From: a virus
Direction: 5' to 3' (one strand)
Virus record (IMG/VR): IMGVR_UViG_3300032236_000656
Coordinates: 8,694 to 72,693 of that record
Length of the DNA stretch: 64,000 nucleotides
The notes under the pieces were generated by a model. It searched no databases. It saw only the letters and a program-made list of their open reading frames with translations, and had not been told where the DNA came from. Positions 2,809-61,751 of this stretch are shown here, piece by piece. Made by a program: the position numbers and the translations under genes. How positions within the stretch are numbered: position 1 is the first letter of the stretch; each line of letters opens with the position of its first letter.

Positions 2809-2815
2809 ATAAATA
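2809..2815 (+). promoter_or_regulatory. T4-like late promoter (ATAAATA)
   Basis: Same motif recurs in intergenic gaps ahead of many structural genes. Confidence 0.55.
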
Positions 2816-2822
2816 TTATACC

Positions 2823-3927: not shown

Positions 3928-3931
3928 TCAA

Positions 3932-5298: not shown

Positions 5299-5313
5299 GT
5301 CATAAATTAGTGT

Positions 5314-6141: not shown

Positions 6142-6166
6142 CACAATGCTTATGCATTGCTATATT
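6138..6166 (+). promoter_or_regulatory. sigma70-type promoter with extended -10
   Basis: TTGACA-17 nt-TATATT, with TG at the extended -10 position. Confidence 0.7.
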
Positions 6167-6171
6167 TGTAA

Positions 6172-8415
6172 GTGATGAAACAGATTTATAGTTCAAACGG
6201 CGATATAGATAAAATTGTAAAAGCTGCTCGCGAGTATGCTAAAGAATTCAATCATGAATATTTCATGGTTGAGCACCTACTACTCAGTTTAGTACATGAA
6301 CGTCATTTTAATAGTTTGTTAGATGAACTGGGTGTACAAACTAGTCTCTTAATTGAAGAAATCGAAGCATATCTATTAACAATTAATGTATATGCTAACG
6401 AAGATGTGCAGGACGATTTAAAGAAAACCGCCAGTTTAGAACGTGTTTTCAATCGTGCTTTTACTCAAGTAATTTTTAGTGGCAGAAAACAAATCAATTT
6501 GATTGATCTGTATCTAAGTATTACTAACGAAACACACAGCCATGCTGCTCATTTCCTACAGAAATATGGTGTAGAGAAGGAAGAGGTTGTAAAGAGTTGG
6601 ACTAAGCAGCGTAAGGGCAAAACTAATAAGAGTTATGCCGAAAAAGTTCTCGAAAATTATTGTACGAATATGATGACTCTTGCTGGTGAAGGACGTATAG
6701 ATCCTGTTATCGGCAGAGATATGGAAATTCATGATCTTGTACAGATTCTAGCAAGGAAGAATAAGAGCAATGTTCTATTGGTCGGCGACGCTGGCGTTGG
6801 TAAGACTGCTATCGCAGAGGGCTTAGTATTAAAAATTGTTGATGACGATGTACCAGAATTCTTAAAGGGTTGGAAGGTATACAGTCTTAATATTGGGCAG
6901 TTACTTGCTGGCACAAAGTATCGTGGTGAATTTGAAGAAAGATTACAAGAAATTCTAACTGCTGCTCAAGACATGAAGAATGTTATTCTCTTCATTGATG
7001 AAGCACATCAGATGCGTGGTGCCGGCGGCGGCAATAATAGTGCTGTTGATTTGGCCAATATGATTAAGCCTGCACTTGCTCGTGGCGAGATCAAAGTAAT
7101 TGCATCCACAACTTGGGAAGAATACACTCAGAATTTCGAAAAAGATCGTGCATTAATGCGTCGATTTAATAGAATTTCAGTTGACGAACCTAGTGCTGCT
7201 GTTGCCATTCAAATTTTAGAAGGTATTCGTGACAATTACGAAGGCTTTCATAATGTTGAAATTACTGATGCAGCAATTAAAGCCGCAGTTGAATTAAGTA
7301 TTCGTTTCCAAAACGACAAGAAGTTGCCAGATAAGGCAATTGACTTAATCGACAGTGCGGCTGCGTTGAAGCGCAGTACTGATGCAGTTGATCGTCTAAT
7401 CGATGTTGTACAGATTCAACGTGAGATTAGTCGTATGACAGGTATTCCTGTTAACCAAATGGAAGAACAAAAGAACAGTGTTGATATTTCAACAGTTGAG
7501 ACTGATATTAAGCATCGTGTTTATGGTCAGGATACTGCTGTTGATCAAATATTAGATCGAGTATGGGTCAACCGTGCCGGTCTTAAGAGTAATAATCGCC
7601 CAGTTGGTGCTTTCCTCCTACTTGGTCCAACTGGCACAGGTAAAACAGAACTTGCTAAGACACTAAGCGAAAGACTTAGTATGAAGTTTATTCGCTTTGA
7701 TATGAGTGAATACGGCGAGCGACATAGTGTTAGCCGTTTGATTGGTGCACCTCCTGGCTACGTTGGCTATGAGGATGCTAACTTGGCTGGTGGTCTGCTC
7801 ATAAGTGAGGTTGCTAAGAATCCTCATGCCGTTATCTTGTTTGATGAGATAGAAAAAGCACATCCGGAAGTGGTCCAGATTCTGCTACAGATTATGGACG
7901 AGGGGTTTGTAACGGGCTCTAACGGCAAGCGAGCAGACTGCCGCCAAGCAATTATTCTATTAACAAGTAATTTAGGTGCTGCTGATAACGAACGTAATCG
8001 TATTGGATTTAGTTCGCTTGAACGTACAGGAGAAGATGATGCTGCTGTTAAGGAATTCTTCCGTCCTGAATTTAGAAATCGTTTAGATGCAGTTATTAAA
8101 TTCAATAAACTTAATAAAGAAACTATTAAGAAAGTTGCAGGCAAATTCATTGCTGAAATGCAAACTCAACTAATTGACAAGGATATGTCAGTTGAGTTAG
8201 ATGAAACTGCTTGGGAGTATCTTATTAAGAATGGCTATGATCCACAAATGGGTGCAAGGCCAATGGCAAGACTGATACATGAGAAAATTAAAGTTCCTCT
8301 GGCTAAGAAAATACTGTTTGACAACTTGTCTAACGGTGTTATAATTAAGGTCAGCGCCGTTGGCGACGAAGTGGAGCTGTCAGTTGGACAAGAATCAATA
8401 CCTACAGAAGTTTAA
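6172..8415 (+). CDS. clpA: ATP-dependent Clp protease ATPase ClpA
   Basis: Clp N domain, two AAA+ modules (GDAGVGKT; GPTGTGKT), GAPPGYVG pore loop, IGF loop, no ClpB M-domain. Confidence 0.92.
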   Translation: MMKQIYSSNGDIDKIVKAAREYAKEFNHEYFMVEHLLLSLVHERHFNSLLDELGVQTSLLIEEIEAYLLTINVYANEDVQDDLKKTASLERVFNRAFTQVIFSGRKQINLIDLYLSITNETHSHAAHFLQKYGVEKEEVVKSWTKQRKGKTNKSYAEKVLENYCTNMMTLAGEGRIDPVIGRDMEIHDLVQILARKNKSNVLLVGDAGVGKTAIAEGLVLKIVDDDVPEFLKGWKVYSLNIGQLLAGTKYRGEFEERLQEILTAAQDMKNVILFIDEAHQMRGAGGGNNSAVDLANMIKPALARGEIKVIASTTWEEYTQNFEKDRALMRRFNRISVDEPSAAVAIQILEGIRDNYEGFHNVEITDAAIKAAVELSIRFQNDKKLPDKAIDLIDSAAALKRSTDAVDRLIDVVQIQREISRMTGIPVNQMEEQKNSVDISTVETDIKHRVYGQDTAVDQILDRVWVNRAGLKSNNRPVGAFLLLGPTGTGKTELAKTLSERLSMKFIRFDMSEYGERHSVSRLIGAPPGYVGYEDANLAGGLLISEVAKNPHAVILFDEIEKAHPEVVQILLQIMDEGFVTGSNGKRADCRQAIILLTSNLGAADNERNRIGFSSLERTGEDDAAVKEFFRPEFRNRLDAVIKFNKLNKETIKKVAGKFIAEMQTQLIDKDMSVELDETAWEYLIKNGYDPQMGARPMARLIHEKIKVPLAKKILFDNLSNGVIIKVSAVGDEVELSVGQESIPTEV

Positions 8416-9438: not shown

Positions 9439-9603
9439 ATGGCCAAACTTAATTCAGAAACTATAGAAATCAAAATTAGCGAACTGCTGAAGGACAATGC
9501 CGAAGCAGAAATGATGTTAGACAATACTCTAATTGCTCAATTGATTGAGGTTATTGAAACATTGGTTGGTGATAAAAGACTTGTGGAAGTAACACGAAAA
9601 TGA
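9439..9603 (+). CDS. Small hypothetical protein (54 aa, not in the ORF track)
   Basis: ATAAATA (9417) and SD AGGAG, then MAKLNSETIEIKISELLKD...; stop overlaps the next ATG. Confidence 0.7.
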   Translation: MAKLNSETIEIKISELLKDNAEAEMMLDNTLIAQLIEVIETLVGDKRLVEVTRK

Positions 9604-10010
9604 GTATTGTACCAACAGTGATACTTAATCAAACATCATTTGGAGCAGCAAATGGATCAGGTAGTGGTGGTAATCCTCCTACTATTGGCGGGGGCGGCAG
9701 TTATAATGGCACGGACTTAGATTGGTATACTACAGGATATCATGCTAACGGCTATTATGGTTATTCAGACGGTCTACAAACAGTAAGTTATAAATTAACA
9801 AATTTTGTTGGAACTATTGGTGTGCAAGCAACACTTGCCACTAATCCTACATCAGACGATTGGTTTGATGTTCCCAACACACAGATTGGAGATGGTGAAA
9901 CTCCAGTTACAACTTCAACTTATTCTAACTTCATCGGAAGTTTTGTATGGATTAGAATTGCTGTTACCAATTTCACTGCTGGTACTATTAATAAAGTACT
10001 ATATAATTAA
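9600..10010 (+). CDS. Putative virion structural protein
   Basis: Gly/Thr/Asn-rich beta-type composition; late context. Confidence 0.55.
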   Translation: MSIVPTVILNQTSFGAANGSGSGGNPPTIGGGGSYNGTDLDWYTTGYHANGYYGYSDGLQTVSYKLTNFVGTIGVQATLATNPTSDDWFDVPNTQIGDGETPVTTSTYSNFIGSFVWIRIAVTNFTAGTINKVLYN

Positions 10011-11354: not shown

Positions 11355-11369
11355 TAGCATAAATATAAA

Positions 11370-12509
11370 ATGCGAGCAACAGAATTTCTTACTGAAGAAT
11401 ATGATCCAACCAAAGCAAGAGTACCTCACCCTGAAGATGAGGTACTTATTGGTGGTTCAGTAGGTGCTAAATCAGCCATTGCTGCAATTAAGCAGATGGC
11501 AACAAATCCTGAAACAATTAGTATTAAGCCAGACGGTAAACCTGCTTTAATTTGGGGAAGAGACGAAAAAGGATTTTCTCTTGTTGACAAACATATGTTC
11601 AAAGCAGGAACATTACCACGTAATCCTAATGAACTAGCACAAGTTTATTCTGCTCGTAAAGGTGGCGGCAGAGAAGATTTAATTGCAATGATGACTGCAC
11701 TTTGGCCTCAGTTTGAAGCAAGTGTACCAAATAGTTTTCGTGGGTGGCTATTTGGTGACCTACTATACAGTCAAACCCCTCCAATTCAAAACAACAATTT
11801 TGTGTTCAAACCTAATACCGTTGTATATACAGTTGCTACTAATAGCGAATTAGGGCAGCAGATGGCAAAAAGTACATCTGGTATTGTTGTACATACATTC
11901 TTTTCAAAAGCACCAGGAATGGATCCACAAGGTCAATTTGTTGCTCCTCCAGGAAGACATATTAGTAAATTACCCGCAGCCATTAATAATAAAGGTCCAT
12001 TATTAATGATAACTGATCAATTCACAACTCCTCCTAGAGTTAAACTTCCGCCTGATCTAAAGTCTATTGAAAACTTTATTACTTCTAATGGTGCTGTAAT
12101 GGATAAGTTCTTAGACGAAGCAACATTGACATCATTGAAGATAAAAGATCTTCCTTCATTGCTACAAGCATACGGCAATTATAGAGTTAAGCAACGTAAT
12201 TTTGATAATTTTGGTAGCGATTTTATTACTGATTTCTTAGCAAGCAAAAAAGTAAGTCCGCAAAAGATGAATAATATTCAAAAATATATCGAAGCAAATA
12301 GAGCAGGATATAAAGTATTGTGTCAGGCATTTATTGGTATAATGCGTGTTAAGGATCATATTGTTAATAATCTAGACGCACACCCTGCTCAAATGCAAGC
12401 ACATATTAATGATGTACCAGGGCAGGAAGGATATCTTGTTCATACTAAAACTGGTCTATTCAAAACAGTTGACCGCGCAAAGTTCAGTGCTGCTAACTTT
12501 GAACATTAA
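11370..12509 (+). CDS. RNA/DNA ligase-fold protein (DUF6267-like)
   Basis: KPDG (motif I), LFGDLLY (III), EGYLV (IV), FKTVDR (V); MRATEFLTEE N-terminus. Confidence 0.55.
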   Translation: MRATEFLTEEYDPTKARVPHPEDEVLIGGSVGAKSAIAAIKQMATNPETISIKPDGKPALIWGRDEKGFSLVDKHMFKAGTLPRNPNELAQVYSARKGGGREDLIAMMTALWPQFEASVPNSFRGWLFGDLLYSQTPPIQNNNFVFKPNTVVYTVATNSELGQQMAKSTSGIVVHTFFSKAPGMDPQGQFVAPPGRHISKLPAAINNKGPLLMITDQFTTPPRVKLPPDLKSIENFITSNGAVMDKFLDEATLTSLKIKDLPSLLQAYGNYRVKQRNFDNFGSDFITDFLASKKVSPQKMNNIQKYIEANRAGYKVLCQAFIGIMRVKDHIVNNLDAHPAQMQAHINDVPGQEGYLVHTKTGLFKTVDRAKFSAANFEH

Positions 12510-12536
12510 TAAATATATCATCAATCGGGCTTAATC

Positions 12537-15320
12537 ATGCGTGTAGAAGAACTTCATGAAGAAAATATTAAGAAAGTAGTTTTTACTTTTGGCCGATTGA
12601 ACCCTCCACATTTTGGACATCATGCATTAATCCAAACATTACAAAAAGAAGCACAGAAGCAAGGTGCCGATTGGTTCTTATTTGTCAGTGCTAAAACTGG
12701 CGATGAGAAGAATCCTCTTACATATGAACAAAAGATTTGGTGGATACAGGCATTATTTCCTGAGACTAAAGGACATATTGTCAATGATGCCAGTATCAAA
12801 ACTCCATTGATTGCTGCTACTTGGTTATACAAGCAAGGTTATCGTGCTGCTACCTTTGTTGCAGGCGAAGACGATATGTCCAGTTATGGAGAGATGATTA
12901 AAGGTGGCAATGCACATGGACAAAATAATCCAGATGCAGTTAAACAAGGTAAAGGATTTATTTTCAATCCATTAGACTTTGCTATTAGTCCACGTTTAGC
13001 CAGTGCTACTAATGCTCGTAGAAATGTCACAGATGGTGATCCAGAAGCATTTGTTCGCAGTATACTTGGTCCTAAGATTAATCCGCGATTAGAAAAATTA
13101 GTGCATGATCAATTGTATCCAACATTGCGTAAGGCAATGGGATTAAGTGAAAGCGTTGACGAAAGCGCAGAACTTAATAAGACTACTCCTAGTGTAAGAG
13201 ATCTTGCTAAGAAGTATGCAACAGATCCTTCTACCATACATCATCAAGTCAACAGAGGTGTTAAGGTAGAATTTGAACATACAAACGACATCGAAGTTGC
13301 TACTGAAATAGCAATGGATCATCTTGGTGAAAGATTGGATTACTACGATCTATTAGACAAGTTAGAGAAAACTCCAAAAAAAAAGTTTGGTGAAAACTTT
13401 GCTGATGGTAAAGGTCCGGGTAGACCAGGCGATAGTCAAAGACACAGTATCCCAAAAACAGTAGATGAAGCAATGTGGCCTTTCAAAAAGAAGAAAGCGC
13501 CAGAAATGTCGGCGCCTAAGCGTTGGCCAGATCGTGATGATGATCTAGAACAATGGATGCGTGATAAGATTACACATTATAAGAGCAAAGGTTGGGATCC
13601 TGCTGTATTCTTTAGTCCAGCTACTGGTGATTACTTCCCCATCTATTTCGCAACTGGCTTCAGATATAATGATGCTGCTAAACAAGCATACCGTAACATC
13701 AAGCGAGAGTTCCCAGATCTGGTCAAACGTGCTAGGGAAGAGATCAGCACTCCAATGGCAATGCGTATAAATCAAAGTAGAGTTGGTGATCACGAAGATT
13801 GGCCAGAAAATTCCCCTAGTGTATATGAGAACTTCGCTGATGGTAAAGGACCCGGACATCCTGGGGACAGTCAGCGTCATGGCATCCCAAAGAAAGCAAC
13901 AATAGCACAGTTAGAGAAAGCAAGTCATGCTAAAGGTCGTAAAGGACAATTAGCACGTTGGCAACTGAACATGCGTCGTGGTAAGAAGAAAGCCAATGAA
14001 GAAATAACTAACGAAGTTGCAGATCAGCCATATCGTTTTATTTCACCAGTAAGTACTTCAACCACACAAAAATCTATATTCCAAACTGATGGCGGCGCAA
14101 GAATGCAGGTCGCCATTATGATACCTCAAAATTCTGATACTGCACATATTGGCTTTTATGATGCCACTGATCAAGATAATCCTACAATAGCAGTAACAGG
14201 CAAGGGAGATGCTTTCCGTGTGTTTGCTACTGTAGGTGCTATCGTAAAGCAGTTTGTTGACAAGCGTAAGCCACCCTACATTAATTTTGCTGGTAAGTCA
14301 TCTGAATCAGGTCGTATTAAATTATATGATATGATTGCCAAGAACATTGGTCGTTATCTACCAGATTATAAGTTGGTTGATACTGGCATGGTCTCAGGCG
14401 GTGATAAAGGATATGTGTTTCAGAGAGTAGCACAAGAAAGTGTAGTTGAAGAAAAGAAACCTAAAAAGCCAAAAACTATTATTGACGGTGCGTTAAAGAC
14501 ATTGATTGCTAAAGGCCGTAGCGAAGATGAAGCAATTGCTGATCTAAAGAAAGAAATCGACAGCAAGTTTTATGATTTGGATGAATGGTCTCCTATGGAG
14601 ATAGCAATTATGGAAGGTGGTCATCTATTGGATGATTACGATGAGAATTTAGAAGAAACACTTAAAAAAGTTAAAGGCAAGTGGGCTTTGGTCAGTAGAC
14701 AAAATCCTAAAAAGGTGTTACAATACTATCATGGTAGTCAACATCCTAGCAAGGAATGGGTGAACAAAGTGGAACGCAGAGTTCATAGTTTTGAAAGTGT
14801 AATGGAAGATGATTCGGTTAAGCCTCGTGTTTACCTAGACATGGATGGCGTGCTTGCTGACTTCTTTGGAGAATGGTCAAGATTAGCAGGAGTTGATCAT
14901 TATAAAGATATTAACAATGCAGAGGAATCATTACAGTTAGTGAGAGATCATCCAACATTTTGGGTTGATCTTCCTATGCTGCCTCATGCAAAAGCATTAG
15001 TAAAAACAGTTATCGAAAAGTATGGTGAATATAGAATTTGCAGTAAACCACTAGAAGGTGATGATCGCAGTAAACCCGGCAAGATGGCATGGATTAAGAA
15101 ACACTTAAGTGACATGCCTCCTGTTGAAGTTGTATTAACTGCGGACAAAGCAAAGTATGCAATGCACGAAGGCGTGCCAAGTATACTTGTTGATGACTTT
15201 GGCGTTAACATTAACGCTTGGAAGACATCTGGTGGTATTGGCATCAAGTATGATGACTCGGCATTTCCGCAAGTTGAAAAGATACTGGAAAAGATTGCCA
15301 AGTCTGGAGTTCTAAAATGA
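12537..15320 (+). CDS. Multidomain polyprotein: cytidylyltransferase-like, DUF5661-like and other modules, HAD 5'(3')-deoxyribonucleotidase
   Basis: TFGRLNPPHFGH (HxGH); GVKVEFEHT...AMDHLGE; YLDMDGVLADF...ILVDDF; Glu-rich linkers. Confidence 0.7.
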   Translation: MRVEELHEENIKKVVFTFGRLNPPHFGHHALIQTLQKEAQKQGADWFLFVSAKTGDEKNPLTYEQKIWWIQALFPETKGHIVNDASIKTPLIAATWLYKQGYRAATFVAGEDDMSSYGEMIKGGNAHGQNNPDAVKQGKGFIFNPLDFAISPRLASATNARRNVTDGDPEAFVRSILGPKINPRLEKLVHDQLYPTLRKAMGLSESVDESAELNKTTPSVRDLAKKYATDPSTIHHQVNRGVKVEFEHTNDIEVATEIAMDHLGERLDYYDLLDKLEKTPKKKFGENFADGKGPGRPGDSQRHSIPKTVDEAMWPFKKKKAPEMSAPKRWPDRDDDLEQWMRDKITHYKSKGWDPAVFFSPATGDYFPIYFATGFRYNDAAKQAYRNIKREFPDLVKRAREEISTPMAMRINQSRVGDHEDWPENSPSVYENFADGKGPGHPGDSQRHGIPKKATIAQLEKASHAKGRKGQLARWQLNMRRGKKKANEEITNEVADQPYRFISPVSTSTTQKSIFQTDGGARMQVAIMIPQNSDTAHIGFYDATDQDNPTIAVTGKGDAFRVFATVGAIVKQFVDKRKPPYINFAGKSSESGRIKLYDMIAKNIGRYLPDYKLVDTGMVSGGDKGYVFQRVAQESVVEEKKPKKPKTIIDGALKTLIAKGRSEDEAIADLKKEIDSKFYDLDEWSPMEIAIMEGGHLLDDYDENLEETLKKVKGKWALVSRQNPKKVLQYYHGSQHPSKEWVNKVERRVHSFESVMEDDSVKPRVYLDMDGVLADFFGEWSRLAGVDHYKDINNAEESLQLVRDHPTFWVDLPMLPHAKALVKTVIEKYGEYRICSKPLEGDDRSKPGKMAWIKKHLSDMPPVEVVLTADKAKYAMHEGVPSILVDDFGVNINAWKTSGGIGIKYDDSAFPQVEKILEKIAKSGVLK
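13392..13893 (+). repeat. Two diverged copies of the ENFADGKGPGxPGDSQRHxIPK coding module
   Basis: Copies start at ~13392 and ~13827 and flank an unrelated ~120-aa module. Confidence 0.8.
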
Positions 15321-15330
15321 GGAGCGTAAC

Positions 15331-15597
15331 ATGCGTTGCACCAATGATAGAGACTGGGATCAGATCCTTACAATATGGGAGAATTTCTCTCTAATAGAAC
15401 CTATCAATATAAAGACTGTGGAAATAAAACGCCAAGCAGTTGAATACTTGGGCATCGATAATCATCACAAATTAAACAAACACGAATTAAGATCCTTGTT
15501 AAGCAAGGCACATAAAATGAAAAACAGCACGAAAAAAGAAGAACGTGCTAGAGGGAACGAATTAGAAAAACAACTTCTAAGCGTTTTTAACTACTAA
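15331..15597 (+). CDS. Hypothetical protein
   Basis: SD GAGGAG before the ATG. Confidence 0.6.
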   Translation: MRCTNDRDWDQILTIWENFSLIEPINIKTVEIKRQAVEYLGIDNHHKLNKHELRSLLSKAHKMKNSTKKEERARGNELEKQLLSVFNY

Positions 15598-15604
15598 GTA
15601 ATTG

Positions 15605-15895
15605 ATGGAATCATTACTAAGAGTTAGAATTAAAGTACCCGAATCATCAACTAAAAATGGTAGATATAGACTTTGGCTTGATAAATTTATGTTGATCGAG
15701 CGTATATATCCTATTGAAATTGGCAGTTATCTTCAATTAGAAGAAATTGTTCATGTTAAATTATCCCCTGGCATACACCATATAAAGATTGAAAATTTAG
15801 AGTTGGAAACGCAAGCAATTATAAATGCTGTGGCAATTAATGATACAATATATCTCAATTTATCCACTTTAGTTCAATCTTTCGAATTACGATAA
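15605..15895 (+). CDS. Hypothetical protein
   Basis: ORF in a packed operon. Confidence 0.55.
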   Translation: MESLLRVRIKVPESSTKNGRYRLWLDKFMLIERIYPIEIGSYLQLEEIVHVKLSPGIHHIKIENLELETQAIINAVAINDTIYLNLSTLVQSFELR

Positions 15896-15920
15896 ATATT
15901 TTCAACACAGGATTTTCCAG

Positions 15921-16970
15921 ATGAACGAACGACACGTTAAACTCCTTACCCAGCGTTATGCCGTTGAACAGCGCATTCGTGAATTACAAAATACAACAAT
16001 ATCAGAGTCAAATAGATCAGCAGCAGATGCATTGCTTGCTAAACTTCATGCTACACTTGCTAGAATTAATGAAAGTTCTGAAGTTGTTGAACTCAGTATT
16101 CCTTCAAGAGATAATAGCAATGATCACGAAATGGGACATCACCATCAAGAACTAGATCATGAAGTAGATATGGCACGTGCAGAATTACATCGTGCTGCAC
16201 ATTCTGCTATTGCACTTGGAAAAATTCTTGAAAGAATTAGCGAAGAACAAGGGTTAGAAGGTTGGGTCCAGGCTAAGATTACCAAGGCTGCTGATTATCT
16301 AGACAGCGTATATCATTATTTAGAATATGAGATGAATGCCAGTCATGATGTTGATGAAGGTGTTGCAGCATATGGCCCCGGCGAAGATCCAAATGATCCA
16401 CAGTCTGCAAAGCCTCAGGCTCCTGGTGCACCACAACAAAATCCAAATGCACAGCAGCCTGGACAACAGAGTACAACTCCTCCTGCAGGTGGCTCAACTC
16501 CTGGATCCACAAGTCCAGGTATGGTAAAGATGGCTAAGTTGGACGCACAAAAGAAACCAATTGGCACACCACTAATGGTCAAGAGTGCAGAAATTGCAGC
16601 AAAGCAAAAGCAAGGTTTCTTCGTTATTGGTGAAAGCAAAGAAGAAAAGAAAGTTGCACACTGTTCACAGTGCGGTAAAGGATTTAGTGCATCGGGTGTA
16701 GATGCAAAGTATAAGACTGGATTTAGTCATTGTAAAGATCATAAGGGTATGAAAGTAATTGCAGAAGATGCAAGTGCTGGTGCGAGTAGTGCAGGTTCAA
16801 TGGGAGGAAGTCCGACTGGATTTGCAAGCGGTGGCATTGGGATGCAGAAGCGTAAGAAAAAGAAGATTGGTGAAGAGACTGTAGAAAATGATGAACCAAC
16901 TTTTACAGGCTACTGGAAAGGCAAGGACAAAGGTAAGCCTGGCAAGAAGATGGTAGGAAGTAGTACATAA
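15921..16970 (+). CDS. Putative internal head protein (modular)
   Basis: After ATAAATA (15892); WVQAKITKAADYL module, CxxC...HC..H Zn module, Glu-delimited segments. Confidence 0.6.
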   Translation: MNERHVKLLTQRYAVEQRIRELQNTTISESNRSAADALLAKLHATLARINESSEVVELSIPSRDNSNDHEMGHHHQELDHEVDMARAELHRAAHSAIALGKILERISEEQGLEGWVQAKITKAADYLDSVYHYLEYEMNASHDVDEGVAAYGPGEDPNDPQSAKPQAPGAPQQNPNAQQPGQQSTTPPAGGSTPGSTSPGMVKMAKLDAQKKPIGTPLMVKSAEIAAKQKQGFFVIGESKEEKKVAHCSQCGKGFSASGVDAKYKTGFSHCKDHKGMKVIAEDASAGASSAGSMGGSPTGFASGGIGMQKRKKKKIGEETVENDEPTFTGYWKGKDKGKPGKKMVGSST

Positions 16971-18163
16971 TGCGAATTAACGAAGTAGCAACTTATTCAT
17001 ATATTGAAGAAACAAGCCAACTATTTCAGGCTCTTGCTCTTCGTCATACTATGCTAGTAGAGGGTCAACTAGACGAAGCAGGTGTGTGGGATATTGTTAA
17101 AGGAACAGTTGGCGGCGTAATGAAAGGCATTAAAACTGCCGATGATGCCATTAACAAACTTGGTCGTCTTGTTCAGCAAACTAAACCTGTTGAAGAATTT
17201 GATACTAAAGTTGATGCTGTTGTTGCTGATCTTAAACAAAAATTAGGTGCTAAATCTCCTAAAGCCGTTGCAACTGCTGAGAAGTATGCTGCTTGGGCTA
17301 AAGAACATCCCATTAAACAAGGTCTTATCATTGGTGCATTAACTGCTATTGCTGCTCTTGCTGTTGGTCCTGGTGCCGCAGCGGCCGCTGGATTTATTCT
17401 TCGTGCAACAAATGAATATATGAAAGGTGAAAAGGCATCAACTGCGATTGGCAAAGGTGTAAAGTCTGCGGCAGTTGGTGCTGCATTAGGTGCTCTTGCA
17501 AATGCTGCTATTCCTGAAATTGGAGAGATGTTTAAGTTAGCCAAACCTATATTAAAAGATGTACCTGGCTATAATGCATTAACAACATTTAATGCAACAT
17601 ATATATTTAACGGAAATCCGTTAGTTAACATTTCAAGAATGATGGATGATGATTCTATTAAAAAATATTATGCTCTTACTAAAGAATTAGATGCAGCATT
17701 AACTGAAATGACTGCTTGGCATCAAGATGGAACTAAAGTTGGTCCTGAAAAAGCTCAACAAGCCTTGGCTAAAATTAAAAATTTCTTGAACAGCAAAGAA
17801 TTAAACGAAAAAGTAGCAGACATACTAGCAAACAATGCTTCTGTAGTTGATAAACAGGCAGCGGCTCAAAAAGCTTACAATGCTGCCTTAGCAACTGCCA
17901 CAACAACTAATACTCAAATTGATAATGTAATAAAAATATTAAAACAAGTATCTACTGCTGGCGCTGCTGGTACAGCCGCTAGCGGATTAGCAGGAAAAGC
18001 AGCAGGAGCAGTTAAAGGTGCCGCTGGTGCTGCAAGAGATAAATTTAGAGACTTTGTTCCAAGTAAAACATTTAAAACTGTATCACAGCAAATTAAAGAT
18101 CTACAGCCTGCTGACAAGCAGAAGTTAGTATCAATATTAAAGCAAGAACTCGCAACAGCATAA
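16970..18163 (+). CDS. Putative internal head/ejection protein, Ala-rich with a hydrophobic segment
   Basis: MRINEV start; GLIIGALTAIAALAVG hydrophobic stretch. Confidence 0.55.
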   Translation: MRINEVATYSYIEETSQLFQALALRHTMLVEGQLDEAGVWDIVKGTVGGVMKGIKTADDAINKLGRLVQQTKPVEEFDTKVDAVVADLKQKLGAKSPKAVATAEKYAAWAKEHPIKQGLIIGALTAIAALAVGPGAAAAAGFILRATNEYMKGEKASTAIGKGVKSAAVGAALGALANAAIPEIGEMFKLAKPILKDVPGYNALTTFNATYIFNGNPLVNISRMMDDDSIKKYYALTKELDAALTEMTAWHQDGTKVGPEKAQQALAKIKNFLNSKELNEKVADILANNASVVDKQAAAQKAYNAALATATTTNTQIDNVIKILKQVSTAGAAGTAASGLAGKAAGAVKGAAGAARDKFRDFVPSKTFKTVSQQIKDLQPADKQKLVSILKQELATA

Positions 18164-18176
18164 GGGAGTATCAATC

Positions 18177-18323
18177 ATGGCAAAGGCAATCAAAGAAGTA
18201 AAGTTAGAAAGAGTTAAGAATAATAAAGGCACAAGCCAAGGTATTGGCAACCTTAAGATGAGTTCAATGAATAAACATACAAAGCGCAGTTTTAAGAAAT
18301 ATAGAGGCCAGGGTAAACCATGA
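18177..18323 (+). CDS. Small basic protein (48 aa, not in the ORF track)
   Basis: SD AAGGGAG; MAKAIKEVK...KKYRGQGKP; stop overlaps the next ATG. Confidence 0.7.
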   Translation: MAKAIKEVKLERVKNNKGTSQGIGNLKMSSMNKHTKRSFKKYRGQGKP

Positions 18324-19495
18324 GAATAAGTGAGATATTAGAAGCAAATTATTGGAAGGCAGACAAAACTTTTAGACAAAAGCGTTTGCCAACATTAGAG
18401 CCTGATCCAGTAGATAATGCTGAAAGATTTGATGCTGCTAAACATGATCAAGCAGATGATCACGGTCCAGAGATCGATGTTAACAATGCTCAAATGAGAG
18501 CAGCAATAACTCAATTGTTATTGAAGTTACCACCAAGACTCGAACGTATTCTTAGAGAAAGATTCTTCTTAGATAAAACATTAGAAGAAATTGGTGCAAA
18601 ATATAATATATCTCCAGGTAGAATTAGACAACTGGAAGCAAAGGCATTGAGACTGTTAAAGCATCCTAGTCGTTCTAAACAACTAAAGTCAATGCTACAA
18701 ACCAGTACTCAAGAAGCAGCCAACCCTGCACAACAAGCAGCCATTGCTATCAATATGAAAAAGCATGGTAAGAAGCCTAAAGATGACATGGACGAAGCCA
18801 AGCAACGCCTAGATCCAAAATGCTGGACTGGTTATCATAAAGCCGGTACTAAGATGAAGGGTGGCATCAGAGTTAATAACTGTGTCAAGGATGAAAGCAT
18901 CAATGAATTTGCCCCAGACGAAGGTCCAGAACGTGATGATGGCGGCAAGCCAGAATTCATGTCATGGGAAGACTTTGTTGCCGCAGTTGCTAATCTGACT
19001 AAGTCTGCTTTTGATGTTAAGATTGGTTTCAAAAATAAGAAACTAAACAAGACACAAGCAGCAGCAAAGTTTATTCCACACGATCCATTTGAATTTGGAC
19101 CTGTATCCTTGTATGCTTTTAAGGATCGCAGACCTCCTTACCGTGTAGGTGTTAGGGCACATATGCAGATTGGTGCATACAGCAAACACGGAGAACAACT
19201 TCTTAGTCAGTATAAGATCCCGCAGAACAATCTACGCGAAGTCTTGATGACCCCTGCAAATGCAACCAGGATTGCTCATGCTATCATGCAGAATACTAAT
19301 GGAGCATTGAAGGAAAGTGTTGAAGAATCAAGCGGTCACATTCCTAAAAACGAAAAAGAAGCACATGATCCACGTTGGTCCAATGCTTTAACTGTTGATA
19401 TTGGTCCTGGTGAAGATAAGAAACAAGCTGCTAAGTTTGGTTTTAAGGTAAGTAATAGTGGTCCACCCAAACTACGAGCAAATGGAAAATTCTAA
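18320..19495 (+). CDS. Modular protein containing a sigma70 region 4 domain
   Basis: LPPRLERILRERF...TLEEIGAKYNISPGRIRQLEAKALRLLKHPSRS matches RpoD regions 4.1/4.2. Confidence 0.8.
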   Translation: MRISEILEANYWKADKTFRQKRLPTLEPDPVDNAERFDAAKHDQADDHGPEIDVNNAQMRAAITQLLLKLPPRLERILRERFFLDKTLEEIGAKYNISPGRIRQLEAKALRLLKHPSRSKQLKSMLQTSTQEAANPAQQAAIAINMKKHGKKPKDDMDEAKQRLDPKCWTGYHKAGTKMKGGIRVNNCVKDESINEFAPDEGPERDDGGKPEFMSWEDFVAAVANLTKSAFDVKIGFKNKKLNKTQAAAKFIPHDPFEFGPVSLYAFKDRRPPYRVGVRAHMQIGAYSKHGEQLLSQYKIPQNNLREVLMTPANATRIAHAIMQNTNGALKESVEESSGHIPKNEKEAHDPRWSNALTVDIGPGEDKKQAAKFGFKVSNSGPPKLRANGKF

Positions 19496-19848
19496 TGCGT
19501 GTTAAAGAAATTATGGAAGCAGTGATGTCGGTTGGTGTACAGTCTAAACATCCTATCAGCGCAGGTGCTCGTGGATTAATGGGCGCACGTTTTCGTTATG
19601 ATCTTGCAGTTGAAAATAATGCAAACGACAGCGATAAAAATGCAGTTGATCAACTTGAACATAATTTAAAGTATATTCCAAAAACTGACTACGATCACAT
19701 TGATATGCTAATGCAGACTATCTGCGAAAAATTTAGAATTGAACCTAAAAAATTGCATGATATGTTTATTCAAAAATTTAATTGCACTCCTGACGCTTAT
19801 GCTATAAACTATAAGAAGTCAAGAGAAGGTCAGCCAAGAAAGATCTAA
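19495..19848 (+). CDS. Hypothetical protein (MRVKEIMEA start)
   Basis: Coupled start; shares the N-terminal motif of its neighbours. Confidence 0.6.
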   Translation: MRVKEIMEAVMSVGVQSKHPISAGARGLMGARFRYDLAVENNANDSDKNAVDQLEHNLKYIPKTDYDHIDMLMQTICEKFRIEPKKLHDMFIQKFNCTPDAYAINYKKSREGQPRKI

Positions 19849-20737: not shown

Positions 20738-23386
20738 ATGTACGTAGATGCTATCATTGATAGAGAGAAAGAGCGTATCCATGTTGTGGAACGTCGAGAT
20801 GGTAAAAGAGTTTATCATGATTATCCAGCAAACTATGTGTTCTATTACCCCGACGAGCGCGGCAAGTTCCGCACTCTTTGGGGAGAACCATGCCAGCGAG
20901 TAAGCACTCGTAGTAGCAAAGAATTCCGTAAGGAAATGTCTGCTTTTAAAGGAAAGCAAATATACGAAAGTGATATTAATCCAATCTTTCGTTGTTTAGC
21001 AGACAATTATCTTGGACAAGATGCTCCAGAACTAAACACTGCATTTTTCGATATCGAGACGGACTTTGATAAGGTCCGTGGATACAGCAGTCCCGAAGAT
21101 CCTTTTACAAAAGTTACCGCAGTAACAGTATATCTCAATTGGCTAGATCAGTTGATTACACTGTGTATGCGTCCGCCTACACTTTCAATTGAAGAAGCAC
21201 AAGCAATTTGTAACAGTATCCCAAATTGTTTTCTATTTGAAAATGAAGCAGACTTATTGACAACATTTATGGATTTAATTGAAGATGCTGATATACTAAG
21301 CGGTTGGAACAGCGAAGGCTTTGATATTCCTTACATGATCAATCGTACTTCTAGGGTATTAAGCAAAGATGATACACGTCGCTATTGTCTTTGGGGACAG
21401 ATGCCAAAAGATAGGACATACGAGAAGTTTGGACTAGAACGTCAAACTTTTGATCTTGTTGGCAGAGTTCACATGGATTATATGAACCTCTATCGCAAAT
21501 ATACCTATGAAGAACGTCATAGTTATGCACTGGATGCCATTGGCGAATACGAACTAAATGAACGTAAGATTCCATATGAAGGTTCACTGGATCAGTTATA
21601 CAACGATGACTTTAAAAAGTTTCTCGAATATAACAGACAGGATACTGCACTGTTGGATAAGTTGGATAAGAAGTTAAAGTTTCTTGATCTTGCAAACGAA
21701 CTTGCTCATGCCAATACTGTGTTGCTACAAACAACAATGGGTGCTGTGGCTGTGACTGAGCAAGCAATTATCAATGCTGCTCATGCTCGTGGAATGGTTG
21801 TGCCAACACGTAAAGGATATAGCGATGATAATCAAGCAGCAGGCGCTTATGTTGCATATCCTAAGAAAGGTATTCATGAGTGGATCGGTGCAATTGATAT
21901 TAATTCACTTTATCCCTCAGCCATTCGTGCATTGAATATGAGTGTTGAAACTATCATTGGACAGTTACGTCCTGTGATGACTGATCAATATATCAAAGAC
22001 AAGATGGCACGTGGTAAGACGTTTGCTGATGCATGGGAAGGTATGTTTGGTACACTTGAATATACCGCAGTTATGAATCAAGAAATTGGTACTGAGATTA
22101 CAATTGATTGGGAGGATGGCGACAGTGAAACGTATAGCGCAGCGCAGATATACAGGATGGTCTTTGATTCGAACCAAACATGGAGTCTTAGCGCCAACGG
22201 GACGCTGTTCACTCTTGACAGACAGGGTGTCGTTCCAGGCCTGCTTGAACAATGGTACAAAGAGCGTCAGGAACTCCAGGCCAAAAAGAAAGAATCCAAA
22301 GATGCTAAAGAAGCAGCCTTTTGGGACAAACGACAGTTAGTCAAGAAGATTAATCTAAATAGTCTATATGGAGCAATTTTGAATCCAGGCTGTAGATTCT
22401 TCGATAAACGTATTGGACAAAGCACTACACTAAGTGGTCGTGTTATTGCTCGTCATATGGACGCTACTGTTAATGAATGTCTAACAGGTGAATATGATTA
22501 TATTGGTAAGGCTGTAATATATGGCGATACTGATTCTGTTTATTTCAGTGCGTGGCCAGTTGTTAAGGATGATGTTGCTGCTGGACTTATGGAATGGAAC
22601 AGTGATATCTGTATTAATCTATATGATCAGATTGCCGAACAAGTTAACATTAGTTTCCCTCCATTCATGGAAAAAGCATTTCATGTACCAACTGAAAATG
22701 GTAAGATCATTAAAGGTGGCAGAGAACTTGTTGCCAGTAAGAGTTTGTTTATTACTAAGAAGCGTTATGCTGCATTGATTATTGATCTTGAAGGCAAGCG
22801 TTTGGATCGTGAAGGCAAGACTGGCAAGATCAAAGCAATGGGTCTCGATCTTAAACGCAGTGATACCCCAAAAGTAGTTCAAGACTTCTTAAGCAGTATT
22901 TTACAGCAAGTACTAGAAGGCGGCACAAGAGACGATGTTATTGTTTCAATTAAGAAGTTTAAAGAAGAATTTAAACTACGTCCAGCATGGGAGAAAGGTA
23001 CTCCAAAGCGTGTTAATAAACTAACATATTATGGTGATCTTGAAACTAAGAATGGCAAAGCAAATATGCCAGGGCATGTTCGTGCTGCAATTAACTGGAA
23101 TAATATGCTTCGTATGCATGGCGATAATCGTAGTATGAAGATCACCGATGGAATGAAAGCAATTGTATGTAAGTTACGTTCAAATCCATTAGGTATGACT
23201 AGTATTGCATATCCAACTGATGAGCAGCGTTTACCACAGTGGTTTAAAGATATGCCATTTGATAACGGATTAATGGAAGAAACTATTATAACGCAAAAAG
23301 TAGAAAATCTACTGGGAGTGTTAGAATGGGATCTTGCAAGTAATACTAACATTAACAATACTTTTGAATCATTATTCACTTTTTAA
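20738..23386 (+). CDS. DNA polymerase family B
   Basis: Exo FDIETD and GWNSEGFDIPY; pol DINSLYPS, KINLNSLYG, YGDTDS, KKRY. Confidence 0.97.
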   Translation: MYVDAIIDREKERIHVVERRDGKRVYHDYPANYVFYYPDERGKFRTLWGEPCQRVSTRSSKEFRKEMSAFKGKQIYESDINPIFRCLADNYLGQDAPELNTAFFDIETDFDKVRGYSSPEDPFTKVTAVTVYLNWLDQLITLCMRPPTLSIEEAQAICNSIPNCFLFENEADLLTTFMDLIEDADILSGWNSEGFDIPYMINRTSRVLSKDDTRRYCLWGQMPKDRTYEKFGLERQTFDLVGRVHMDYMNLYRKYTYEERHSYALDAIGEYELNERKIPYEGSLDQLYNDDFKKFLEYNRQDTALLDKLDKKLKFLDLANELAHANTVLLQTTMGAVAVTEQAIINAAHARGMVVPTRKGYSDDNQAAGAYVAYPKKGIHEWIGAIDINSLYPSAIRALNMSVETIIGQLRPVMTDQYIKDKMARGKTFADAWEGMFGTLEYTAVMNQEIGTEITIDWEDGDSETYSAAQIYRMVFDSNQTWSLSANGTLFTLDRQGVVPGLLEQWYKERQELQAKKKESKDAKEAAFWDKRQLVKKINLNSLYGAILNPGCRFFDKRIGQSTTLSGRVIARHMDATVNECLTGEYDYIGKAVIYGDTDSVYFSAWPVVKDDVAAGLMEWNSDICINLYDQIAEQVNISFPPFMEKAFHVPTENGKIIKGGRELVASKSLFITKKRYAALIIDLEGKRLDREGKTGKIKAMGLDLKRSDTPKVVQDFLSSILQQVLEGGTRDDVIVSIKKFKEEFKLRPAWEKGTPKRVNKLTYYGDLETKNGKANMPGHVRAAINWNNMLRMHGDNRSMKITDGMKAIVCKLRSNPLGMTSIAYPTDEQRLPQWFKDMPFDNGLMEETIITQKVENLLGVLEWDLASNTNINNTFESLFTF

Positions 23387-23397
23387 AAGGAACAATT

Positions 23398-24237
23398 ATG
23401 GACGTAGTTGAATTAGCAAAATTAAAGGATTATATAGAAAACTCTATTATCCTAACTAAGGATACAGAGAATAGTAAAATTGCAAATATGCTATTGCCTA
23501 TATTGTCTGAAGTTAAAAGTAAAGTACAGGTAAAATTAGATGAAATTAATATTGCTGCTGAAAGTTTAAAACAACGTAGAATTAGATTGCCGGGTCCAAA
23601 TCGACTACAATTCTTTAAGAGTCATGATTACAATCCAGCAGAAGTTGAATTTTTCAATAATATCTTATCTGGATTTTCGGGTTGGAATTATCCTGGATTA
23701 GTTTTATTTCCTGGTGTTGGGCACGTTCTAAATAGTATGGTAAGTTCCGAACCACTGTACATTGCAGATACTTGTGATGAGGTTTTGCAGCATTGTGCAG
23801 GAACATTCAACGAACATTATAGTACTAAAAGATTGATGCAATATAGAATATCTAAGTATGATTTATCTCCGCTCCCACAAGAAGCATTTGGATTAGTAAC
23901 CAGTGTCAATTGGACAGTGTTTGAAAGTTTAGATGGTCTGAGTGAAATTGCCGATAGTGTTTACGAGTTGTTATTGCCAGGAGGCATTTATCTCTTTAAC
24001 TATAATCCTTTGGACAAGTATTGGGGAGTGGAACAGAATACAAAACAACTTGGATACGGTGCATTGACTGAAGATTTAATTGAGAATTTAATATCAATTG
24101 GATTTGAAATTGAAAAAGTAAACAAGCAACCTCATAAAATGGCTTATGTTATCTGTAAGAAAGCAGGTACGTTGGATTCACCAAAATTAACAAGCATACT
24201 TGCGAAAATTATTGCAACCGATGAAGAATTACTATAA
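23398..24237 (+). CDS. Class I SAM-dependent methyltransferase-like protein
   Basis: LVLFPGVG (motif I-like) and LLLPGGIYLFNY. Confidence 0.5.
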   Translation: MDVVELAKLKDYIENSIILTKDTENSKIANMLLPILSEVKSKVQVKLDEINIAAESLKQRRIRLPGPNRLQFFKSHDYNPAEVEFFNNILSGFSGWNYPGLVLFPGVGHVLNSMVSSEPLYIADTCDEVLQHCAGTFNEHYSTKRLMQYRISKYDLSPLPQEAFGLVTSVNWTVFESLDGLSEIADSVYELLLPGGIYLFNYNPLDKYWGVEQNTKQLGYGALTEDLIENLISIGFEIEKVNKQPHKMAYVICKKAGTLDSPKLTSILAKIIATDEELL

Positions 24238-24263
24238 AATATAACAATATAAAAGGACAAAAT

Positions 24264-24992
24264 ATGAAAGATTTTCTATTAGACATAGTGTCGCATACAT
24301 TACCATTGAATATTTCCCTTGTTAAGATCACAGGAGATGATAATAGCACTGTTGTTGAAGCAGCAGCAGATGATAAGAGTGTTATTCTAAAGGGTACGTT
24401 TAAGACTGCTAATCCTGCGTTCAAGGGAGTTTTTGGTATGCCAAATATTCCAAAGTTGAATACTATTCTAAATATTCCAGAATATAACGAAAATGCACAG
24501 ATCAAGTTAGAGACTCAAGATCGTAATGGAGAAATTATTCCTAGCGGACTTGAATTTGAAAATGCTTCTGGAGATTTTAAGAACTATTATCGTTTCATGG
24601 GCACTGAAATGGTAAATGAAAAGTTAAAGAGCATGAAGTTTAAGGGTGTAAATTGGCAGACAGAGTTTGAACCTTCAGTTGCCAGCATACAGCGTTTTAA
24701 GTTTCAAGCAAACGCAAACAACGGCGAAACAGTATTCATTGCAAAGATTGAGAACAATCAACTAAAGTTCTACTTTGGAGATCATAGCACAAACACTGGT
24801 AGTTTTGTCTTTCATTCGAATGTAAGCGGAAATATTACTAAGACATGGTACTGGCCAATTGCACAGTTTCAAAGCATACTAAATCTGTATGGCGATAAGA
24901 CTGTATACTTCAGTGACGAAGGCGCAACTCAAATTACAGTTGATAGCGGTCTTGTTGTATACGAATATATTTTGCCAGCACAGAGCAAGTAA
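24264..24992 (+). CDS. Putative sliding clamp
   Basis: ~240 aa beta-rich protein near the polymerase; C-terminal YEYILPA typical of clamps. Confidence 0.55.
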   Translation: MKDFLLDIVSHTLPLNISLVKITGDDNSTVVEAAADDKSVILKGTFKTANPAFKGVFGMPNIPKLNTILNIPEYNENAQIKLETQDRNGEIIPSGLEFENASGDFKNYYRFMGTEMVNEKLKSMKFKGVNWQTEFEPSVASIQRFKFQANANNGETVFIAKIENNQLKFYFGDHSTNTGSFVFHSNVSGNITKTWYWPIAQFQSILNLYGDKTVYFSDEGATQITVDSGLVVYEYILPAQSK

Positions 24993-25000
24993 GGAAGAAA

Positions 25001-61442: not shown

Positions 61443-61751
61443 TTACTGTCCTGGTATGGCGGGATTACTCGACATTGTAGTTGCGTCTGTTTGATTGGCT
61501 GCTACATCAGCCTTTACTGTGTCTAAATGTTGCTGTAGTGGGGGTGTCCATTTGACTTTACCATCAGATCCTTTTCTATCCGCTGGATCCTTCACTGGTT
61601 CACCAGATGGTTTAATCGCATTTGTATCTGTTACTGAGGCTGTTCCACCATTAATGTTAATGACAATTTGCTGTGGAGGAGGAGCAGAAGTCTGCTTATC
61701 CATAGCATCTACCATCTTAACAAGTTTTTGTATAAACTCAGCAGCCCGCAT
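61443..61751 (-). CDS. Putative head-associated protein (MRAAEF start)
   Basis: ATAAATA (61771-61777, - strand) and SD AAGGTGAG. Confidence 0.6.
   Translation of the reverse strand: MRAAEFIQKLVKMVDAMDKQTSAPPPQQIVININGGTASVTDTNAIKPSGEPVKDPADRKGSDGKVKWTPPLQQHLDTVKADVAANQTDATTMSSNPAIPGQ

Follow-up and report, generated by a model that had tools for sequence, protein, structure and literature searches.

Unrelated proteins are packaged into the head of bacteriophage T4 behind a common leader of about ten residues, the capsid-targeting sequence (CTS). The CTS of internal protein IPIII is given as MKTYQEFIAE, with a single cut by the prohead protease (PMC8442874); this protease, gp21, is described as cutting after L/I-x-E, with CTS residues 4 and 7 serving targeting and residues 8 and 10 processing, and the CTS is named as the one thing that the T-even internal proteins have in common (PMC9026906, PMC3012670). 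In the T4 record, gp24 starts MAKINELLRE, Alt starts MELITELFDE, and gp23 contains FLTE. The cuts, which we take to be MAKINELLRE/S, MELITELFDE/D and FLTE/A, each follow a Glu (here and below, a slash between residues marks a cut or junction). Exchange of the T4 leader Glu for Asp stops processing and leaves targeting intact.

A locus of comparable form is described here from 64,000 nucleotides of viral DNA (the window), which are bases 8694-72693 of the 72,693-base contig IMGVR_UViG_3300032236_000656, 21% complete by CheckV. Five genes in block 11370-19848 encode otherwise unrelated proteins that share a CTS-like leader, and the long open reading frames (ORFs) of the block are mosaics of modules that meet just after Glu. 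The reading that we prefer, to which as a whole we give a probability of about 0.55, is that the block would be the head cargo of a T4-related jumbo phage, made up of proteins with a CTS-like leader and of module strings that are cut apart. The leader is likely, by analogy, a T4-type head-targeting propeptide, and cutting of the multi-module ORFs at their Glu junctions by a prohead protease is plausible from the sequence; head targeting is ranked the likelier of the two.

A leader shared by unrelated proteins

ORFs were called greedily over the whole contig, which gave 82, and the expected number of starts of the form M[KR]xx[ED][FLIVM] was calculated from their N-terminal composition. Six ORFs of the 72.7-kb contig fit this pattern where 0.40 were expected (binomial P ~3e-6), and five of the six lie inside the 8.5-kb block, the genes of which (lengths in amino acids, aa) are:

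11370..12509, plus strand: 379-aa putative cargo gene; leader MRATEFLTE (11370-11396), then DUF6267 (Pfam E 3.8e-32)
12537..15320, plus strand: 927-aa multi-module ORF; leader MRVEELHE (12537-12560); modules delimited from Pfam, PHROGs and homology breakpoints
15331..15895, plus strand: two small ORFs of 88 and 97 aa; no leader and no family match in Pfam or PHROGs
15921..16970, plus strand: 349-aa ORF; no leader; many hydrophobic-x-Glu sites
16970..18163, plus strand: 397-aa ORF; longer leader (MRINEVATYSYIEE); Ala/Gly-rich hydrophobic stretches (about residues 118-180); large family
18177..18323, plus strand: 48-aa basic ORF; no leader; phrog_17967
18320..19495, plus strand: 391-aa multi-module ORF; leader MRISEILE (18320-18343)
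19495..19848, plus strand: 117-aa ORF; leader MRVKEIME, kept by orthologues in contigs L002, L004 and L005

An earlier note on this DNA had pointed out that five genes of the block start alike, and the count bears this out. Their starts read MRATEFLTEE (11370), MRVEELHEE (12537), MRINEVATYSYIEE (16970), MRISEILEA (18320) and MRVKEIMEA (19495). Each leader ends in hydrophobic-x-Glu (LTE9, LHE8, IEE14, ILE8 and IME8, respectively); its length is 8-10 residues, and up to 14 in one family, with the consensus M-R/K-x-x-E-h-h-x-E, where h is hydrophobic. The Pfam content behind the leader differs among the five ORFs, so that a short leader is common to proteins that are otherwise unrelated. Two further members that had been proposed did not hold up: MRQLSEG at 3409 falls outside the pattern, and the start at 61751 lacks the closing Glu. 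The latter ORF, for which a place among the cargo appears doubtful from its sequence, is:

61443..61751, minus strand: 102-aa leader-like ORF, MRAAEFIQKL, among tail-fibre genes; ATAAATA 19 nt upstream

The 333-kb relative G001 has a similar ORF, with the start MKPSEILRSL.

Homologues were collected in four metagenome searches. The strict leader was present in 82 of 120 homologues of ORF 18320, in 87 of 119 shorter homologues of the 927-aa ORF, in 44 of 55 DUF6267 homologues of ORF 11370 and in 70 of the 149 ORF 16970 homologues that were listed, out of 515 at E<=1e-3. The two most distant DUF6267 homologues have no leader and start exactly at the conserved core. It stands directly ahead of at least six unrelated modules, and the residue after its Glu is mostly A, S or E. 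ORF 18320 has a mosaic set of homologues, the majority matching only a piece of 35-65 residues at 70-90% identity. The leader is thus a real and portable tag. A second h-x-E-S site (..ILTES/C, ..ILNEGW) follows the first at a distance of 15-25 residues in many proteins of the ORF 16970 family, which suggests a longer propeptide there.

G001, whose DNA polymerase is 59% identical to that of the window, carries the strict leader on 16 of its 441 ORFs. The block upstream of its polymerase has the leader starts MKIREIITES, MKINDICEST, MRFREFLIEY, MRANEFITES, MRANEFIVET and MKINELLNES, and leader-bearing genes in and outside this block carry DUF6267, DUF6934, GH19 hydrolase and GNAT domains. Three more leader-like starts (MKINEFGNKQ, MKLNDFDKKN and MRLFEFDQEK) were seen at 303253-306843 of G001, distant from the polymerase-proximal block.

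The protein of ORF 11370 was modelled with AlphaFold2 from 40 sequences. The mean predicted local distance difference test score was 90.7 and residues 1-8 scored below 50, so that the leader is modelled as a loose, predicted-disordered extension of the fold. K53-x-D55-G56 is invariant in 40 sequences. The top 21 VIA rows for the fold were RNA or DNA ligases at modest Z scores of 5.0-6.7, the best Foldseek E was 0.06, and phmmer gave no sequence match in the PDB; on these modest scores DUF6267 may be a ligase-like nucleotidyltransferase fold.

The shared start could also be read at the nucleic-acid level, as a context for translation initiation or as a linker through which genes recombine and are shuffled, with no functional peptide behind it. 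Spacing between the genes is tight, a stop codon overlapping the next start at 16970 and 19495 (taATGCG), and residues 308-431 of the 927-aa ORF are an insert found only in the window and flanked by two ENFADGKGPG copies, which suggests that it arose by recombination between these repeats. Against a nucleic-acid signal, the conserved Arg and Glu codons vary between leader copies (CGA/CGT/AGA and GAA/GAG) and no long identical nucleotide run is found, so that conservation and selection appear to act on the peptide; moreover, the amino-acid pattern is kept across relatives with 59%-identical polymerases and across cyanophages. We regard such a signal as very improbable.

Glutamate at module junctions

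The modules of the two leader-bearing long ORFs, by residue number, are:

927-aa ORF, to about residue 209: module 1, NMNAT-like cytidylyltransferase
927-aa ORF, residues 210-286: DUF5661
927-aa ORF, residues 287-311: basic FADGKGPG peptide
927-aa ORF, residues 312-431: module of no named family
927-aa ORF, residues 432-493: second FADGKGPG module
927-aa ORF, residues 494-639: DUF6934 module
927-aa ORF, residues 640-683, 684-707 and 708-753 or 757: three small modules
927-aa ORF, residues 758-927: NT5C deoxyribonucleotidase
391-aa ORF, residues 61-115: sigma-70 region 4 (Pfam Sigma70_r4 E 7e-14)
391-aa ORF, residues 133-159: ANPAQQAAIAI basic module
391-aa ORF, residues 160-196: DUF6321
391-aa ORF, residues 197-336: module of no named family
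391-aa ORF, residues 337-391: C-terminal module

The earlier note had listed hydrophobic-x-Glu sites as separators of unrelated modules in the 927-, 349- and 391-aa ORFs and had read these ORFs as strings of effectors that are cut apart. All of the listed sites exist. The raw count of the motif, however, was 19 in the 927-aa ORF against 15.1 in shuffles (15% of shuffles reach it) and 9 against 6.1 in the 391-aa ORF (12%); only in the 349-aa ORF, which has no leader, was it above chance (11 against 5.2; 0.4%). Because the count was not significant for the first two, the list of sites by itself weighs little, raw enrichment was dropped as evidence, and module boundaries were defined without using the motif. 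Three definitions were applied, namely the end of a homologue's leader where the same module continues inside the window ORF (which gave E209, E493 and E757 of the 927-aa ORF, E132 and E159 of the 391-aa ORF, and E54 or E57 of the 349-aa ORF), genes that are split in one relative and fused in another, and module insertions in L004, whose 1185-aa polyprotein is ~90% identical. The ten boundaries that follow from homology only all fall after Glu (E209, E493, E639, E683, E707 and E757; E132, E159 and E336; E54 or E57). The residue at -3 is L, V or M in eight of them, and at E132 and E493 it is Thr, which is not hydrophobic. The junctions, all on the plus strand, are:

13161..13163: Glu209, SVDE/S; aligns with the leader end MRVYEIFE/S of the DUF5661-first homologue P0019
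13392..13394: Glu286, KFGE/NFADGK
13827-13829: Glu431, SVYE/NFADGK; same type as Glu286
14013..14015: Glu493, ITNE/VADQPY; aligns with the leader end MKIHDIINE/VADQPY (P0136)
14451..14453: Glu639, VVEE/KKPKK; a 119-aa module is inserted exactly here in L004
14583..14585: Glu683, DLDE/WSPME; a 285-aa insert lies exactly here in L004
14655..14657: Glu707, NLEE/TLKKVKG; contigs L003 and L007 have module 708-753 as a gene of its own
14805..14807: Glu757, SVME/DD; aligns with leader ends of stand-alone NT5C homologues
16080-16091: likely junction at Glu54 or Glu57 of the 349-aa ORF; residues from ~58 match homologues that start with the leader MKTNDILSE/
18713-18715, 18794-18796, 18905-18907 and 19325-19327: Glu132, Glu159, Glu196 and Glu336 of the 391-aa ORF; from mosaic homologues

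The 119-aa insert of L004 sits after ..SVSEE and ends ..GVNEE, and the 285-aa insert, which contains ParB_N, sits after FYDLTE and ends ..ATYTE/S. The homologues of module 708-753 in L003 and L007 are genes of 54-55 aa with the sequence MRAHEFITE/TLKKVKG.., ending HSFG or HSFE and then a stop; in the window, Glu753 of HSFE lies four residues upstream of Glu757, ahead of the NT5C module. Residues 337-391 of ORF 18320 correspond to a separate leader-bearing gene in L002 and L005 (MRVKEITEA/SGHIPK, against ALKESVEES/SGHIPK in the window). Every distinct homologue copy of the FADGKGPG module is preceded by x-[ED]-N (69 contexts), with E in all but one, which has D, and most copies have a hydrophobic residue three positions before the putative cut.

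Internal sites homologous to post-leader starts were then counted over 244 proteins. Of 327 such sites, 64% have Glu at -1 and 51% have h-x-E, where the backgrounds are 6.8% and 2.2%, respectively; controls shifted by 12-30 residues gave 0-9% h-x-E. Ahead of these sites the leader's targeting half is missing, its place being taken by Lys-rich or acidic linkers. A comparison of module order in related phages, which the earlier note had proposed as a check, came out in its favour: order is permuted among homologues, and in relatives ~90% identical modules are gained, lost, split, fused or inserted exactly at these Glu points. Each module ends in a site of the prohead-protease type, and cleavage into separate cargo is therefore favoured. 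The reading as strings of cleaved effectors thus draws comparative support from the ten Glu boundaries and none from the motif count on which it had relied, and the cleavage itself stays putative.

Alternatively, the leader would target the head but the long ORFs would stay whole as polyvalent multidomain effectors, the boundary Glu being a relic of fusion or a linker or helix cap. The junction ALKESVEES/SGHIPK of ORF 18320 does look like a decayed leader of the L002 gene, KKANEEITNE/V resembles MKIHDIINE/V, and the unenriched raw counts in the 927- and 391-aa ORFs fit an uncut protein; injected polyvalent proteins with 2-15 domains are documented (PMC5512222). Several observations speak for cutting instead. 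The internal junctions keep only the processing half of the leader (h-x-E), the upstream half being replaced by the linkers; module order is freely permuted and single modules occur with a leader of their own, so that independent pieces fit better than one cooperating protein; and proteins of 927-1185 aa would be hard to hold and eject intact. We consider uncut polyproteins somewhat unlikely, although they are the strongest of the competing explanations, and cleavage into separate pieces is retained as part of the preferred reading.

Some further observations concern the modules themselves. The FADGKGPG module is basic, with the conserved sequence E-N-F-A-D-G-K-(G/K)-(P/K)-G, is nearly always the last module of homologous proteins and has no Pfam family. 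The extra module at residues 494-612 of the L004 polyprotein (2843-6400; ANIPPVLYHATYRPLL..GVVYLATDPNVAESYAE..) matches no Pfam family and does not occur in the window. By eye, the ANPAQQAAIAI module resembles the small virion protein ORF93 of cyanophage S-SCSM1. Comparison of the 927-aa ORF with the PDB gave chance-level influenza HA2 rows and weak NT5C rows (E 0.03-0.1), which were disregarded, and the only outcome of a protein atlas search with the 349-aa ORF was a viral hypothetical cluster that scored below threshold (0.76).

Head machinery and virion proteins of relatives

G001 has a T4-type cluster of portal, small core-like ORF, Peptidase_S77 (93 bits), scaffold and Gp23 capsid protein genes. 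After the capsid gene and a homing endonuclease come three tandem leader-bearing kinase-like paralogues, all starting MRI[NT]E[IL]I.ES. These paralogues (G001 174187-175903; L013 9188-10904, minus strand) are ~190 aa long and match the T7 gp0.7-type kinase phrog_15752 (E 1e-9 to 1e-15). Vibrio phage 2.275.O has an annotated prohead protease, and a small ORF beginning MKLVELFEA follows its portal gene, where T4 has gene 67.

T4-like cyanophages have the same neighbourhood of DUF6267 beside a cytidylyltransferase, with a leader still nearer to that of T4. Leader starts are MMLDFKNFITEQ, MLSFKQFVSE and MITFKKYLEE in C48C1, and MNFSEFLEA, MISFDQFLSE (an 821-aa Ser/Thr kinase) and MKLFNQFFKE (a cytidyltransferase) in S-CRM01. 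The cytidylyltransferase of S-SZBM1 starts MRFRQFIIEA, and ORF91 of S-SCSM1, an NMNAT, starts MKSFLQFLKEA, with ATAAATA upstream of each of ORF90-92. The S-SZBM1 enzyme was detected in CsCl-purified virions (PMC9146016), S-SCSM1 ORF89-93 are all annotated as virion proteins (PMC9602691), and the cytidylyltransferase and its two neighbours were detected in S-CREM2 virions by authors who describe kinases and cytidyltransferases as frequent in cyanophage virions, with carry-over possible (PMC10665884). The assignment of the S-CRM01 virion kinase to g130 follows a secondary statement and the annotation. The words 'N-terminal' and 'cleav' each occur 0 times in the text of PMC10665884, and literature searches on CTS with cyanophages or jumbo phages and on the DUF names found no description of the leader. 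The CBB paper lists virion proteins, with nothing bearing on the leader in the portion available. In RaK2 the cytidyltransferase is encoded by a small gene that stands alone within an unannotated cluster, and it was uninformative.

The leader might instead be a tag for a role outside the head, for example with the phage's own ClpA/B-type AAA+ unfoldase and DnaJ in timed turnover, unfolding or other localisation. Genes for a ClpA/B-type AAA+ protein and a full DnaJ lie 3-6 kb upstream of the block, syntenic in G001 and partly so in L005, and a review of jumbo phages raises the possibility that ClpA/ClpX encoded by phages translocate unfolded proteins or help virions to assemble (PMC7824862). 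This is improbable in our view, given the form of the leader on the gene-67-position ORF of Vibrio phage 2.275.O and on the propeptides of T4 gp24, Alt and the internal proteins, and given that leader-bearing homologues were detected in virions. Head targeting, which the earlier note had put forward, is well but indirectly supported by the likeness to T4 propeptides, the T4-type prohead protease of the relative, the late-type motif, the cyanophage virions and the predicted disorder of the leader.

The upstream ATAAATA motif

The T4 late-promoter consensus TATAAATA occurs as a single copy, and the shorter ATAAATA was therefore used. Copies in the block, all on the plus strand, are:

11359..11365: 4 nt ahead of the 11370 ATG
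12509..12515: 21 nt ahead of the 12537 ATG
15892..15898: 22 nt ahead of the 15921 ATG; heads the packed and overlapping gene run 15921-19848

The earlier note had placed ATAAATA late motifs ahead of several genes of the block. Copies do precede 11370, 12537 and 15921; they are not the T4 sequence, and the first is only 4 nt from its ATG. The window holds 13 copies, fewer than the 25 expected from shuffles, and eight of these lie 4-40 nt upstream of called ORF starts (9439, 11370, 12537, 15921 and 41286, and 56534, 57305 and 61751 on the minus strand), against a positional expectation of ~3% by our own estimate (82 ORFs x 45 nt / 128 kb). The 82 called ORFs replaced an initial null of any ORF start within 60 nt, which was uninformative at 39%. 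Structural genes are included, the tail-fibre gene 57305 among them, and so is the 1380-aa ORF 56534, both of these on the minus strand. Likewise, 54 of 120 copies in G001 lie no more than 45 nt upstream of ORF starts, including those of structural genes and the cargo block. The distribution fits a candidate late promoter.

Proposed mechanism and evidence against it

According to the reading preferred here, the leader-bearing proteins would be made late, and an acidic amphipathic leader of 8-14 residues (M-R/K-x-x-E-h-h-x-E) would bind each of them to the scaffolding core of the prohead. A gp21-type prohead protease would then remove the leader after hydrophobic-x-Glu, as for T4 IPI-III, Alt and gp24. 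The long ORFs would consist of independent modules, each ending in x-Glu, which the same protease probably cuts into small enzymes and basic peptides; the pieces would stay in the head and enter the host along with the DNA. The sequences show the leader, how widely it is spread, the mosaic of modules and the Glu at their boundaries; it is head targeting, cleavage and injection that we infer. The predicted cargo comprises a ligase-like nucleotidyltransferase, an NMNAT-like cytidylyltransferase, a 5'(3')-deoxyribonucleotidase, sigma-70 region 4, a protein with hydrophobic stretches and small basic modules. Their functions would suit early host takeover or counter-defence, and the domain names point to possible roles in NAD and nucleotide supply, RNA repair and interference with host transcription.

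Several observations weigh against this reading, among them the unenriched motif counts in the 927- and 391-aa ORFs and the Thr at -3 of E132 and E493 given above. ORFs 15331, 15602, 15921 and 18177 of the block have no leader, and neither, as annotated, do the DUF6267 homologues of S-SZBM1 and S-CRM01. The ATAAATA at 11359..11365 is too near the ATG for a T4-style late promoter with an untranslated leader. The block adjoins the DNA polymerase gene rather than head genes, and no head genes or prohead protease were found in the 72.7-kb contig, itself 21% of a genome. The cyanophage proteins were detected at low abundance, by 2-3 peptides, and the authors concede that abundant soluble proteins may have been carried over (PMC10665884, PMC9602691). 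Depletion of h-x-E inside the DUF6267 fold, considered as a signature of exposure to protease, was too weak to be used (observed/expected 0.81, genome median 1.2). Finally, the Glu moves together with its module, and it might accordingly belong to the fold of that module, or be left over from earlier leaders, instead of marking a cut.

A wider extension, which we offer tentatively, is that T4-related aquatic phages (jumbo relatives of Atu_ph07 and of the Rak2-like phages, together with cyanomyoviruses) share a packaging code, by which a start M-K/R-x-x-E-h-h-x-E would mean that a protein is loaded and x-Glu junctions would be cut sites, so that a single gene could deliver ten or more effectors, with modules that shuffle, split and fuse there. 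If so, DUF6267, DUF5661, DUF6321, DUF6934, FADGK and ANPAQQ, among hundreds of DUF modules, would form a catalogue of injected anti-host effectors. If the preferred reading itself is true, the leader would allow the effectors that uncultured T4-related phages inject to be recognised directly in sequence; the recurrent NMNAT-like enzymes and kinases of cyanophage virion proteomes would be explained; and several widespread DUFs would gain a function class, that of head-delivered proteins for host takeover or counter-defence in the first minute. A Glu-delimited string would be a compact way of packing many effectors behind one tag and a ready mechanism for shuffling modules. The leader also suggests natural alternatives to the T4 CTS that is now used for loading foreign proteins into T4 heads.

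Source contig and neighbouring genes

The window contains a T4-type family B DNA polymerase (20738-23386), a clamp loader, PhoH, Que (7-deazaguanine) genes and giant baseplate or fibre proteins. The closest cultured polymerases are those of Sinorhizobium phage Phosso (51%), Agrobacterium phage Atu_ph07 (48%), Vibrio phage 2.275.O (46%) and Rak2-like jumbo phages (~42%), and a letter-identical copy of the ORF 18320 protein lies on a contig of 353,857 bp. From this gene content, polymerase kinship and identical protein the source is assigned, by sequence, to an uncultured T4-related jumbo phage of which the contig is a fragment. Megablast of the cargo block against 50,697 phage records gave no DNA-level match.

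About 3 kb upstream of the block, DnaJ (5314-6141, J domain and DnaJ_C) and the ClpA/B-type double AAA+ gene (6172-8415; Clp_N, AAA, AAA_lid_9, AAA_2 and ClpB_D2-small) lie side by side on the plus strand; the pair is also present in G001 (23072-26163) and is partly syntenic in L005. It may be linked to unfolding and refolding of the cargo, or it may be unrelated. Three ORFs at 2790-3927 and 9600-10010 (plus strand) match PHROGs annotated 'virion structural protein' (phrog_12928, 13138 and 14467) although their neighbours are genes for replication and lysis; the likely start 2823 and the small ORF 9439 each have ATAAATA ahead of them. GTP cyclohydrolase I, QueD-like and QueE-like genes at 34780-37911 (plus strand) indicate that the phage probably makes a 7-deazaguanine DNA modification, and the same gene set lies near the polymerase region in Vibrio phage 2.275.O.

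Comparison with known systems

The jumbo phages phiKZ, 201phi2-1 and SPN3US resemble the predicted system in that a distant homologue of gp21 processes many of their head proteins, cutting after Glu, and a large cargo is ejected. The motif of the phiKZ type is S/A-x-E, and the accounts available describe no short universal N-terminal leader, whereas the present phage has a T4-type DNA polymerase and, as judged through its relative, a T4-type portal and capsid; it groups near Atu_ph07, Phosso and the Rak2-like phages, unlike the phiKZ-type phages with an inner body.

MuF, ART, ArdC-N, SNF2, DNA methylase and zincin-like peptidase domains are hallmarks of polyvalent proteins, and none of these was found in the window ORFs by Pfam and PHROGs scans. 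Polyvalent-type GNAT and lysozyme-type (GH19) domains were seen on leader-bearing proteins of G001 only. The likeness to polyvalent proteins lies in many unrelated effector domains on one polypeptide, which presumably reaches the host along with the DNA; a CTS-like leader or cutting by a prohead protease is not part of their description (Iyer et al. 2017).

The NMNAT or cytidylyltransferase enzymes and kinases of cyanophage virions (S-SZBM1, S-SCSM1, S-CREM2 and S-CRM01) are a further near match, being homologous to module 1 of the 927-aa ORF and sharing the DUF6267-cytidylyltransferase neighbourhood, the N-terminal leader and the upstream ATAAATA. They are mostly of one or a few modules, and the papers, as far as available, report their detection and do not speak of a leader, CTS or cleavage.

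The prohead core proteins gp22, gp67 and gp68 of T4 likewise have several Glu-X protease cut sites per polypeptide. Their fragments are mostly scaffold debris that leaves the head, whereas the fragments predicted here would be folded enzymes or domains.

There is also a close match with T4 IPI, IPII, IPIII and Alt, in which a leader of ~10 residues is common to unrelated proteins, closing with hydrophobic-x-Glu ahead of an Ala, Ser, Glu or Asp. The block leaders and the T4 propeptides agree in length, in charge pattern and in how they end; G001 has a head of T4 type and a protease of the gp21 family; and the cargo would suit anti-host roles. The differences lie in form and scale. The internal proteins of T4 are small and basic, whereas enzymes and multi-module strings of up to 927-1185 aa are found here; the leader has the form M-R/K-x-x-E-h-h-x-E over 8-9 residues (14 in one family); and the present repertoire of predicted cargo is far larger and modular across metagenomes.

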